A DNA stretch of 64,000 bases from a virus (lineage: Duplodnaviria; Heunggongvirae; Uroviricota; Caudoviricetes). The stretch lies in the IMG/VR virus record IMGVR_UViG_2684623127_000007; one strand, given 5' to 3'. Below, in pieces: positions 3,001 to 6,000 of this stretch. How positions within the stretch are numbered: position 1 is the stretch's first letter; each line of letters begins with the position of its first letter. The position numbers were made by a program.

Positions 3001-6000
3001 AGCCGCACTGCCAAACTGAACGCCGACTTCGTCGATGATCAGCAAATCCAGTGACGCATAATGCTCAATGACGTCATCCGCTGTTTTTTCACTGTCATTC
3101 CGCCAGCAGTTTTTCACAGCACGGGTAAGGCGCATCACGTCGGTGATCTCCACACTGGCCAGATAGTTACGGATGATGTGTTTTGCCATTGATACCGCCA
3201 GATGATTTTTCCCGGTACCGCAACTGCCGGTCATAACAAGACTGGTACCGTTCTCCAGCATATCTGGCCAGTTCTCCGCATAGCGGCGACAGGCCGCAAG
3301 ATTTCTGGCTGCGTCAGGATTAACCTCCAGATAATTATCAAACTCGCAGTCCCGAAAACGCAGAGCAATTCCGGCGTTATCAGTCAGTTCTTCCGCCTTG
3401 AGGGACGACAGCTCCATGGTCAAATCGTTGGCCTCAGCTATCAAGCAGTCAGGGCAGCATGAAATTTTTTCTCTGTCCTCGCCATTACGATCGCTCCACA
3501 CCAGAATATGTGTGTGGTATTCGCCATGTTTTTCGCAACACCCGCGCCCTTCACGCATCCAGCAGGAACGATAAGGCCATGGTTTTTCGCCCTTCTGAGC
3601 AAATGCAATCTCTGCCCGTAACTCATCCATCCGCGCCTGTAGTCTTGTTTGTTGTTCACGCAGGTTAAACGTCATCATCGCTGTCACCTCAGAATGTCAA
3701 TTTGTCACTGGATTTACCGAATTTGTCAGACATGGCTCCCAGGCCAGCCAGGACATCGACCTGTCGCTGTCGCCCACCTCCGGGAGCTGCTGGCTGTTGC
3801 CAGAAATCTTCGAAGTGACGATCGGGTCCAAAGAACGTCGACGCCTGCTTCACGAACTGGGTGCCGGTATTTCCTGAGACACGCACCCAGGCAGCATAGC
3901 GTTTCACACCGTTGAGCATGGTTTCTGGTGTCACACCTTCCCTGATTCGGGCTTTCCAGGCTTTGAAGGCTGCTGACTTGGAATTACCACCAGCACGTTT
4001 GGGATATTCCTGCCAGGCCTGTTCAAATTCCGGTGAATATTCCTGTCGGGCAGAACGCGCTGGTGCAGACGCGTCAGCGGATGCGCCAATAGTGTTTTTA
4101 CTCTCTGTAGTATTCTCTGAAGTAATCTCTGTTGTATTCTCTGTAAGATCGAAATTGGTTTTCCCTTCTCCGCGGCGAGTGGTTTCCCGTGTCCGCGGTG
4201 AAGGCTTTCCCTCCTCCGCGAAATTGGGTTTTACAGTTTCCCGAAAACGGGTTTCCCCATTTCGGGAAAACTGATTGTTTTCATTGATAATTTCATTAAG
4301 GCGCTCACAATCTATACGGTAGAACATTTTGTGCTCAAGACGCTTGTTGGTTTCAACCAAAATGCCTCTGGACACAAGATGCTTACGCGCTACAGCCTGT
4401 TGTTCAAATGTAAGTCCAGTTTCGTGTTGTATCTCTTCACGCGTTTTATGTACGCCTTCCGCTGCATGTGCTTTATCCTGCCAGTAAAAAATCTGACCAA
4501 AGAAAATAACAGCGTGCGGACTTCCCATGTATTTAACGAGCCCAGGGTAATAAGCAACCGGATGCCCAAAATCGAGCAGAAGATCAGACGGACGCATAGC
4601 CACCTCCCAGACGCTTAAACATTTTCCCGGACTGAAAAGCCACCAGCGGATAACTCAGGGTATGAGTACGTCCCTGAACCTGGCAGACAACCATCTGGCT
4701 TTCTGTATTGACCAGGCAAACCCGCAGAACGTGGCCGTTGCTGGTGGTGAACCACTGCCCCACACGGGGGCAACGGTTGTATCGGTGATACAGGGAATTA
4801 ACGACGCGGCGAATCATGGGCGCACCTCCCATTGATTACGGCGGAAAGCGGTGTGACTGAGGCTGATTTCTGCCTCATGGAATGCTTCAATGCAGCTCTC
4901 GTAGTACCGCATTGTGCGTAGACTTAACCCAAGCTGAAGCATCATCAGACCATCAAGGGTGATGTAATAACCACGCAGGGAGTCACCGTAGATGTGATAA
5001 GTACCCGGTATGAAATTGCGGGTAAAAAACTCGCGTGAGCAGTTCAGATACTCGATTTTGTCGACGATGTTCTGGTGCATGCGCTTAAAGTGGCAGGCAA
5101 CATGCAGGGAGAAAATAACGGCCTTGCCGTTGACAACTTCAATTTTCAGGTATGGGGAAGTTGGGACTGTAGCCATGATGGCAGCCTCCTTGAGCAGTGA
5201 AAAACTTCCACCACCGGAGCTGCGAAACTCATGGGTGGTGAACTGAACAGGGTTCGCAGTACCGGCGCTCAAGGAAACCGGCGAGCCTTTCGGCTCCCCT
5301 GCCCAGCCCACCATAATTCTGGCGTGCGCGAGCATGGACGATAAAAAAGACGCTGGCGCGTCGTATATCGCCTCGAGCAATTCCGGGCTGCGACCCCCGG
5401 CACCCGCTTTATAAGGTGCGGAGACAGTGTAACGTCCCGAAATTGCAGAATCAATATTTGGTCTTGAAATGATCATATAGCTGCTGATATCTTTAGAACT
5501 GTTCTTGGATGTTTCGGAGCCGTTTTATGCGAAACAGCTCCCCGTTATTGATGTTGAGTGAGCCGGGTTACTCCCGGCTTTTTTTCACCGCTGCCAACCA
5601 ATAACCTGAAATAACCCCATTTTCGGGTGATACCAGCGAGTCCCTCGCGGTTCTGCTTCCTCCATAACCCGATAAAAAGCAGCCATAAACGGTTCCACAG
5701 CAACAATTGCGCGACGTGACAACAATCCGTCCGGCGTCATGAACTCATGTGTGTCTGTAGGAATTTGATAGGCGTTCACCAGATTGCAGCATTTATCATC
5801 TGACAAACCGGTTTTTGCTTTCAGTTGGCGATATCCGGCATAGCCCTCACGAATAGTGCCCTTTTTAATTTGCTCAACTGTTTCAGCAACGTGGATGACT
5901 TTTTCTTCCACCTGAGTGATCCGTTTCTGTTGGCGAACGGCTTCAAGAGCCATCGCGGCAACCATTTCGATTTCGCTCATTGGCTTACGGATCTGTTCTT

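Follow-up and report, generated by a model that had tools for sequence, protein, structure and literature searches.

A mosaic cassette beside the isrK promoter of Stx2a-converting and related prophages carries a candidate plus-strand small RNA gene

The cassette and its elements

A stretch of viral DNA of 64,000 nucleotides (nt) assigned to the Caudoviricetes (IMG/VR record IMGVR_UViG_2684623127_000007; hereafter the window) carries, between the gene for a Rha/Roi-family regulator and the putative promoter of an isrK-C4 antirepressor module, a short mosaic cassette that we describe here as a candidate gene for a small RNA (sRNA). All long open reading frames (ORFs) in 2800-6631 lie on the minus strand, as the first-pass annotation of this DNA had noted, and within them the cassette presents a promoter-like sequence and an intrinsic terminator that both read on the plus strand. 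Its features are as follows.

5458-5590, both strands: mosaic cassette with promoter, RNA and terminator, delimited by megablast breakpoints
5464-5469, plus strand: -35 hexamer TTGAAA of the candidate promoter, from a consensus scan, invariant in alleles A, B and C
5485-5493, plus strand: extended -10 element TGaTATCTT (TG at 5485-5486, hexamer at 5488-5493, 18-bp spacer)
5498-5585, plus strand: predicted primary transcript of ~85-89 nt (putative start 5498-5501, end in the T-run)
5501-5510, plus strand: 5' block GTTCTTGGAT, possibly a seed, the same in all three alleles (A, B, C) although the flanks have diverged
5516-5541, strand unassigned: internal hairpin 1, GGAGC-C-GTTT / AAAC-A-GCTCC with loop TATGCG, at the same position in the three alleles
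5560-5585, plus strand: intrinsic terminator (stem 5560-5580, loop TTACT, T-run 5579-5585)

The terminator reads GAGCCGGG-TTACT-CCCGGCT followed by further T's, seven T in total (5579-5585). Its core pairs run from G5562-C5578 to G5567-C5573, with A5561-T5579 and G5560.T5580 as optional additions. The consensus scan ranked it first among the terminator-like sites in 1-12000 (eight pairs, six of them G-C), and the hairpin folded by itself gave -16.0 kcal/mol (z = -4.4). Read on the minus strand, the stem leads into CACTCAACATC instead of a U-tract, so the terminator is one-directional; the earlier description of a canonical terminator reading on the plus strand is borne out. T5585 is the first base of TCA, the Rha TGA stop codon as read on the minus strand, and terminator and Rha gene overlap by this one base.

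The candidate promoter, TTGAAA-18-TGaTATCTT (5464-5493), lies ~66 bp upstream of the terminator and was listed by the scan with 9/12 consensus matches and the TG extension. The textbook lambda pO/oop pair, used as positive control, obtained an identical score in the same scan (TTGAGT-17-CATAAT, 9/12, TG present, with terminator). No other plus-strand promoter-like site was found by the scan within ~1.2 kb upstream of the candidate. The nearest, TTGATA-16-CACAAT at 4284-4311, is antisense within the replication O-like gene (3689-4603), at the position that pO occupies in lambda; it is also present in LC567835.1 (L002), at 329-356, and no terminator follows it.

The limits of the predicted transcript are set by the geometry of promoter and terminator; the corresponding plus-strand segment, 5499-5587, folds at -28.8 kcal/mol (z = -3.4). 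The 5' block begins 7-13 nt past the -10 element across alleles. Before the terminator stands the linker CCGUUAUUGAUGUUGAGU, which ends in GTTGAGyGA in all alleles and which, with the stem of six G-C pairs and the seven U, provides the features of an Hfq-type 3' end.

No usable ORF was found on the plus or minus strand of the cassette, and allele C is without an AUG. A small protein or a type I toxin-antitoxin pair was rejected on this ground: the minus strand of 5477-5584 offers no start codon with a ribosome-binding site, and the plus-strand reading frames cross the terminator and are missing from allele C. Rfam (4227 models, including sar, C4, isrK and DicF) was searched with the whole window at gathering threshold and, permissively, with 5200-5800; no plus-strand match in 5460-5590 reached the gathering threshold, and the best plus-strand score, 24.5 bits to sroD against a gathering value of 50, was driven by the terminator. 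A nut/put-like antitermination site on the minus strand was also rejected, as the loops vary, Rfam gives no match and some phages that share the cI-cro-Rha region do not have the cassette. By eye, no convincing LexA or IHF box was seen in 5420-5520.

Distribution and alleles

The cassette has sharp edges. Stx1 phages match the isrK side of the window up to 5457, and phiP27 matches the Rha side from 5591, which places the breakpoints at 5457/5458 and 5590/5591; megablast against phage genomes also returned 100% matches to Stx2a/2d phages. With promoter and terminator motifs of its own, sharp boundaries, and presence or absence among similar phages, the cassette has the makings of a prophage moron. 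It was counted in 222 of 5426 complete E. coli genomes (~4%), in nine phage records and in at least 98 IMG/VR contigs, and the carriers include O145, O103, O111, O26 and some O157 Shiga toxin-producing E. coli. Examples of its location are NZ_CP006262.1 2303765-2303901 (O145:H28 RM13516), NC_013353.1 2181723-2181859 (O103:H2 12009), NC_013364.1 2433073-2433209 (O111:H- 11128), NC_017646.1 2510048-2510184 (CE10) and, for allele B, NC_011415.1 2159340-2159481 (SE11). Identity among most copies exceeds 98%. In GTDB species representatives, a scan for the terminator pattern gave three matches, and the one inspected was an unrelated terminator.

Relatives that share the cI-cro-Rha region have other contents in the slot: a 58-aa DUF4222 ORF, this ORF together with a plus-strand pair of Gp49 (HigB-like) and helix-turn-helix (HTH) genes, or the ends of other minus-strand ORFs. 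An example of the pair lies at 652-1279, plus strand, of locus L104, between the DUF4222 ORF and the isrK promoter, where the Gp49 (HigB-like) and HTH_3 genes are preceded by the palindrome CATAACNATTTTGTTATG. As this pair occupies part of the slot in the opposite orientation, the slot accepts independent accessory units. No terminator of the present kind was found in phages with the same Rha-cro-cI region but with the DUF4222 ORF in the slot.

Three alleles of the cassette were distinguished: A, that of the window; B, for example in SE11; and C, in loci L107, L120 and L155. They have in common TTGAAA, the 18-bp spacer, TGnTATyTT, the 5' block, the position of the hairpin, the linker and the terminator. 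In B and C the -10 element is TGgTATTTT at the same 18-bp spacing, with 8 of the 18 spacer bases different from A; a variant -35 hexamer, TTGGAA, occurs in a single locus. Alleles A and B differ in 44 of 110 aligned columns (40%) but in only one of the 14 promoter-critical positions (hypergeometric P = 0.005, for a test chosen after the data had been seen). The terminator has a constant stem, a variable loop and a T-run of six to eight. Elements and orientation are inherited as one unit: in 97 of 98 IMG/VR loci the terminator is accompanied by the promoter and the 5' block, and the remaining locus carries a 1-nt variant of the block, the one single-base variant of it among the 98.

Hairpin 1 changes sequence between alleles while keeping its place (A, GGAGCCGTTT/AAACAGCTCC; B, GGC..ACTTC/GAAGT.GCC; C, GGC.CTGC/GCAG..GCC). 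With a covariance model trained on allele B, A and C were recovered at 46-72 bits, whereas neither phiP27 nor the other slot types yielded a distant relative. In an alignment fitted to that model, and with few independent events behind it, three of the eight pairs of hairpin 1 are changed in both partners, and the terminator helix is constant.

At the corresponding place phiP27 has a non-homologous plus-strand terminator-like hairpin, GGCCGG-N9-CCGGCC with the tail TTTCTTATTT, which abuts the stop codon of the Rha homologue; this variant is found in a single genome of the phage collection. The hairpin region is 1907-2000 of NC_003356.1 (L005), and the Rha homologue is L14. By eye, an extended -10 promoter, TTGATT-18-TGaTATTGT, lies ~35 nt upstream of the hairpin, and the putative ~58-nt RNA would be antisense to the ribosome-binding site and start of L15 'Ant', a sar-like layout.

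Neighbouring genes

On either side of the cassette the minus strand carries the following features.

5585-6328, minus strand: Rha/Roi-family regulator gene (Pfam Phage_pRha, 32.8 bits; Rha family or Roi in public records), its stop abutting the terminator
5426-5454, minus strand: putative isrK promoter (TTGATT at 5454-5449, 17-bp spacer, TACACT at 5431-5426)
5343-5419, minus strand: isrK-type RNA, seqA analogue (Rfam RF01394, 56.4 bits against a gathering value of 50, full length)
5231-5318, minus strand: C4 / P4-CI-type antisense RNA, STnc1160 analogue (Rfam RF01695, 84.4 bits against a gathering value of 45, full length)
4814-5176, minus strand: Rha-domain antirepressor-like coding sequence (CDS) of 120 aa (Pfam Phage_pRha, 29.5 bits, just below the 29.9 cut-off)

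The last three of these features lie within an ORF of 220 aa (4814-5476), which is an 'ash family protein' or a hypothetical protein in public records, with the isrK and C4 RNA genes left unmarked in both annotated copies inspected. The Pfam Phage_ASH match to this ORF (aa 16-108, nt 5431-5153) coincides with the two RNA genes, and the remainder is a weak Rha domain; judged from these matches, the '220-aa gene' consists for the most part of translated isrK and C4 RNA genes, and the Phage_ASH family may likewise be RNA genes in translation for a large part. In the LC567835 annotation only the last 120 codons of the ORF stand as a separate CDS, the frame of which is open upstream to an AUG at 5314 (orf45-like). 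By its predicted parts, the whole is an RNA-controlled antirepressor module of the P1/P4/Gifsy-1 type. In Gifsy-1, PisrK has been demonstrated experimentally and drives isrK, a processed C4-like RNA (STnc1160)/orf45 and the antirepressor anrP, an arrangement that the authors relate to seqA/CI of P4 (PMC4825925). In LC567835.1, two tandem isrK-C4-antirepressor-like cassettes lie in one prophage (1276-1464 and 1932-2120, Rfam).

The putative isrK promoter ends 7 nt before the first position of the Rfam match to isrK (5419) and is invariant among the loci compared; read by eye it has 8/12 consensus matches, below the 9/12 of the candidate. The two promoters stand back-to-back, with their -35 hexamers 9 bp and their predicted start sites ~81 bp apart. 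The first-pass annotation had placed the RNA antisense to the junction between Rha and the 220-aa gene. Its Rha half holds, for the stop codon and the 3' flank; the other half gives way, because that gene is mostly isrK and C4, and the RNA is therefore antisense to the spacer between Rha and the isrK promoter and back-to-back with the latter.

Farther upstream on the minus strand, the gene in the cro position (6374-6631) matches Pfam YdaS_toxin (37.2 bits) better than the Cro families. Near the end of the window, the minus strand carries an ALIL pseudoknot (IS3-family frameshift element) at 60306-60422 and a sok antitoxin RNA (hok/sok type) at 61176-61325.

Target and literature searches

A duplex scan with the 5' block on both strands of the window gave nothing better than shuffled seeds; pairing to the leaders of isrK, C4, ant, rha, cro, cI and O was not significant, and 1.78 Mb of related prophage DNA contained no second perfect ATCCAAGAAC site. 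A 14-bp match in cI with two G.U pairs (7150-7163) was rejected, being at chance level and the block being conserved in alleles linked to other immunity regions. In the cI-cro intergenic region, the direct repeats ATCAAGAATAC / ATCAAGAATAA (6659-6680, 11 bp apart, with a third ATCAAG at 6721) resemble the reverse complement of the 5' block (ATCCAAGAAC) save for a 1-nt indel; since the block is conserved beside other immunity regions too, this likeness is probably due to chance. Sakai was not among the matches listed (100 of ~220 carriers), so the tables of Hfq crosslinking and analysis of cDNA (CRAC) for Sakai (PMC4104026) were not applicable.

Interpretation

We consider it somewhat probable, judging from sequence features, that the cassette is an undescribed gene for a plus-strand sRNA of ~87 nt, which would act in cis, as an antisense RNA to transcripts reading through from Rha, or else in trans by means of the 5' block. 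Transcription would begin near 5500 from a sigma-70 promoter that has an extended -10 element (5464-5493) and stands back-to-back with that of isrK, and would be convergent with early-right (pR-type) transcription. The RNA would consist, in order, of the single-stranded block GUUCUUGGAU, the internal hairpin, a G/U-rich linker, the terminator, and a U-tract reaching to the Rha stop codon. Acting in cis, it would pair with the Rha 3' flank on transcripts that read through from cro-Rha to isrK and create a substrate for RNase III, as OOP does for cII; acting in trans, it would have its seed in the 5' block, and terminator and U-tail together would form a 3' module of the Hfq type. We infer both the production of the RNA and either mode of action from this arrangement.

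Several observations weigh against such a gene. The region shows no excess of promoter-like matches (the consensus scan gave 9, with 15.4 expected), so the promoter motif by itself, as it had first been proposed, proves nothing; its weight comes from conservation between diverged alleles and not from the motif match, and only two of the promoter alleles are independent, C carrying the promoter of B. Conservation of the terminator is weak evidence, as the terminator and the Rha 3' end belong to one block of common descent. Hairpin 1 of allele A folds better as minus-strand RNA (10 contiguous pairs, -15.1 kcal/mol, z = -4.1) than as plus-strand RNA, where the helix is interrupted (-11.8 kcal/mol, z = -1.7), and two polymorphisms of this allele keep it on the minus strand through G.U pairs and weaken the plus version. 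No complementary target beats shuffled controls in the window, the early leaders or the 1.78 Mb of prophage DNA. Searches for transcript evidence found none: a full-text search located the hairpin sequence in no paper, Rfam has no family for it, and a 2025 review of phage sRNAs has no entry at this position.

The terminator might instead act alone, as an insulator against plus-strand (antisense) transcription running into Rha, cro and the plus-strand cI beyond, with the promoter-like bases being upstream or UP-like context of the isrK promoter or conserved by descent. We regard this as unlikely, although no other element present is as strong as the terminator, the region has no more promoter-like matches than chance would give, and the candidate -35 is just 9 bp from that of isrK; the unrelated phiP27 hairpin, which also counts in favour of the sRNA reading, has the same orientation at the corresponding gene end and suggests that the position is selected. 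Against the insulator stand the ~1.2 kb upstream of the candidate that are free of other plus-strand promoter-like sites, the selective conservation of the promoter-critical positions, the fact that the terminator never occurs apart from promoter and 5' block (save for the one locus with the 1-nt block variant), and the phages with the same Rha-cro-cI region and DUF4222 in the slot, which do without such a terminator.

Somewhat less likely again is a function on the minus strand, where the hairpins of the cro-Rha transcript would stabilise its 3' end, provide a processing site or serve as a structured spacer ahead of the isrK promoter, and the T-run would be incidental. It would account for allele A, with its longer minus-strand helix and the two polymorphisms that preserve only that version, and for the folding of the whole minus-strand segment at z = -5.05. 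In alleles B and C, however, hairpin 1 folds slightly better on the plus strand, and one polymorphism of B preserves the plus helix only; the alleles thus contradict each other, and assignment of the strand by G.U pairs was abandoned. On the minus strand the hairpins are without a U-tract and so are not terminators, and the seven A between stop codon and stem have no known role there, whereas on the plus strand they are exactly a terminator tail. The cassette is also dispensable in phages with the same early operon. Structure kept on both strands would be expected of a cis-antisense pair, and would fit a minus-strand 3' untranslated region element equally well. Promoter and terminator orientation favour the plus strand; hairpin 1 is not decisive.

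A more elaborate version of the sRNA reading, which we hold to be doubtful, joins the cassette and the isrK promoter into a bidirectional RNA control unit. RNA made in the lysogen would pair through its allele-specific hairpin with cro-Rha-to-antirepressor transcripts, whether of the resident prophage or of a related phage entering the cell, and trigger their cleavage, so gating the antirepressor or excluding superinfection; the hairpin alleles would be specificity types. In principle this would be comparable to the BTP1 antisense RNA STnc6030 (PMC7067206).

That the cassette is a non-functional remnant, DNA of a recombination junction with motifs arisen by chance, is very improbable: most copies are so nearly identical that recent spread accounts for much of the conservation seen, but three diverged alleles retain promoter, hairpin position, 5' block and terminator, and a perfect G+C-rich stem with seven T exactly between two genes is hardly expected by chance.

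If the RNA of the sRNA reading is made, Stx2a-converting and related prophages would gain an unannotated regulator in the region that controls lysis and lysogeny. Lying directly beside the antirepressor RNA switch, the cassette could influence prophage induction and hence toxin release. The annotation of the 'ash family protein' or 220-aa hypothetical protein is corrected in either case, to what is largely isrK and C4 RNA genes in translation.

Comparison with known systems

The isrK/C4/P4-CI modules (isrK-orf45-anrP of Gifsy-1, c4-icd-ant of P1) are represented by the immediate neighbour of the cassette, with the promoter regions back-to-back; unlike the isrK and C4 RNAs, the candidate is on the other strand and matches no Rfam model. 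No divergent partner RNA is described for such modules in PMC4825925.

AgvB and AsxR are 'moron' sRNAs of enterohaemorrhagic E. coli prophages (Tree et al. 2014, PMC4104026). Like them, the candidate is a promoter and terminator unit at a mosaic site of a lambdoid/Stx prophage, opposite in orientation to its neighbours and with a G+C hairpin and U-tail; it differs in lying in the early region and not at the PR' moron site, in its predicted length (~87 nt against 51-60 nt) and in having no sequence relationship to either. The window has an AgvB match of its own in Rfam (54626-54685, plus strand, 56.6 bits, just at threshold), and in 54626-55237 the AgvB and STnc100 matches and two tRNA genes form a typical Stx-phage PR' moron region.

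P22 sar, like the predicted RNA, is a small antisense RNA next to an antirepressor operon of a temperate phage. However, sar overlaps the ribosome-binding site of ant, whereas the candidate (5498-5585) points away from the isrK start (5419) and the antirepressor-like CDS and would be complementary only to read-through RNA from upstream; the Rfam sar model does not match it. The phiP27 variant is nearer to sar in layout than the candidate is.

Lambda OOP is a 77-nt RNA made from the promoter pO, antisense to the 3' end of cII with a coding overlap of ~55 nt. The candidate overlaps one base of a stop codon; it is placed between Rha and the isrK-C4-antirepressor module, unlike OOP with its place between cII and O, and its 5' block is conserved, which a purely cis-acting RNA would not need. 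Homology to oop was rejected, since the best local alignment is 13 nt of the terminator and 448 of 1000 shuffles score as well. The equivalence to OOP drawn in the first-pass annotation does not extend to sequence, to a cII gene, which is not present here, or to overlap with a coding 3' end. The resemblance is one of layout only: like OOP, the candidate has, by its motifs, its own sigma-70 promoter with an extended -10 element and a strong intrinsic terminator, is oriented convergently to the early-right operon and stops where an early regulatory gene has its 3' end.

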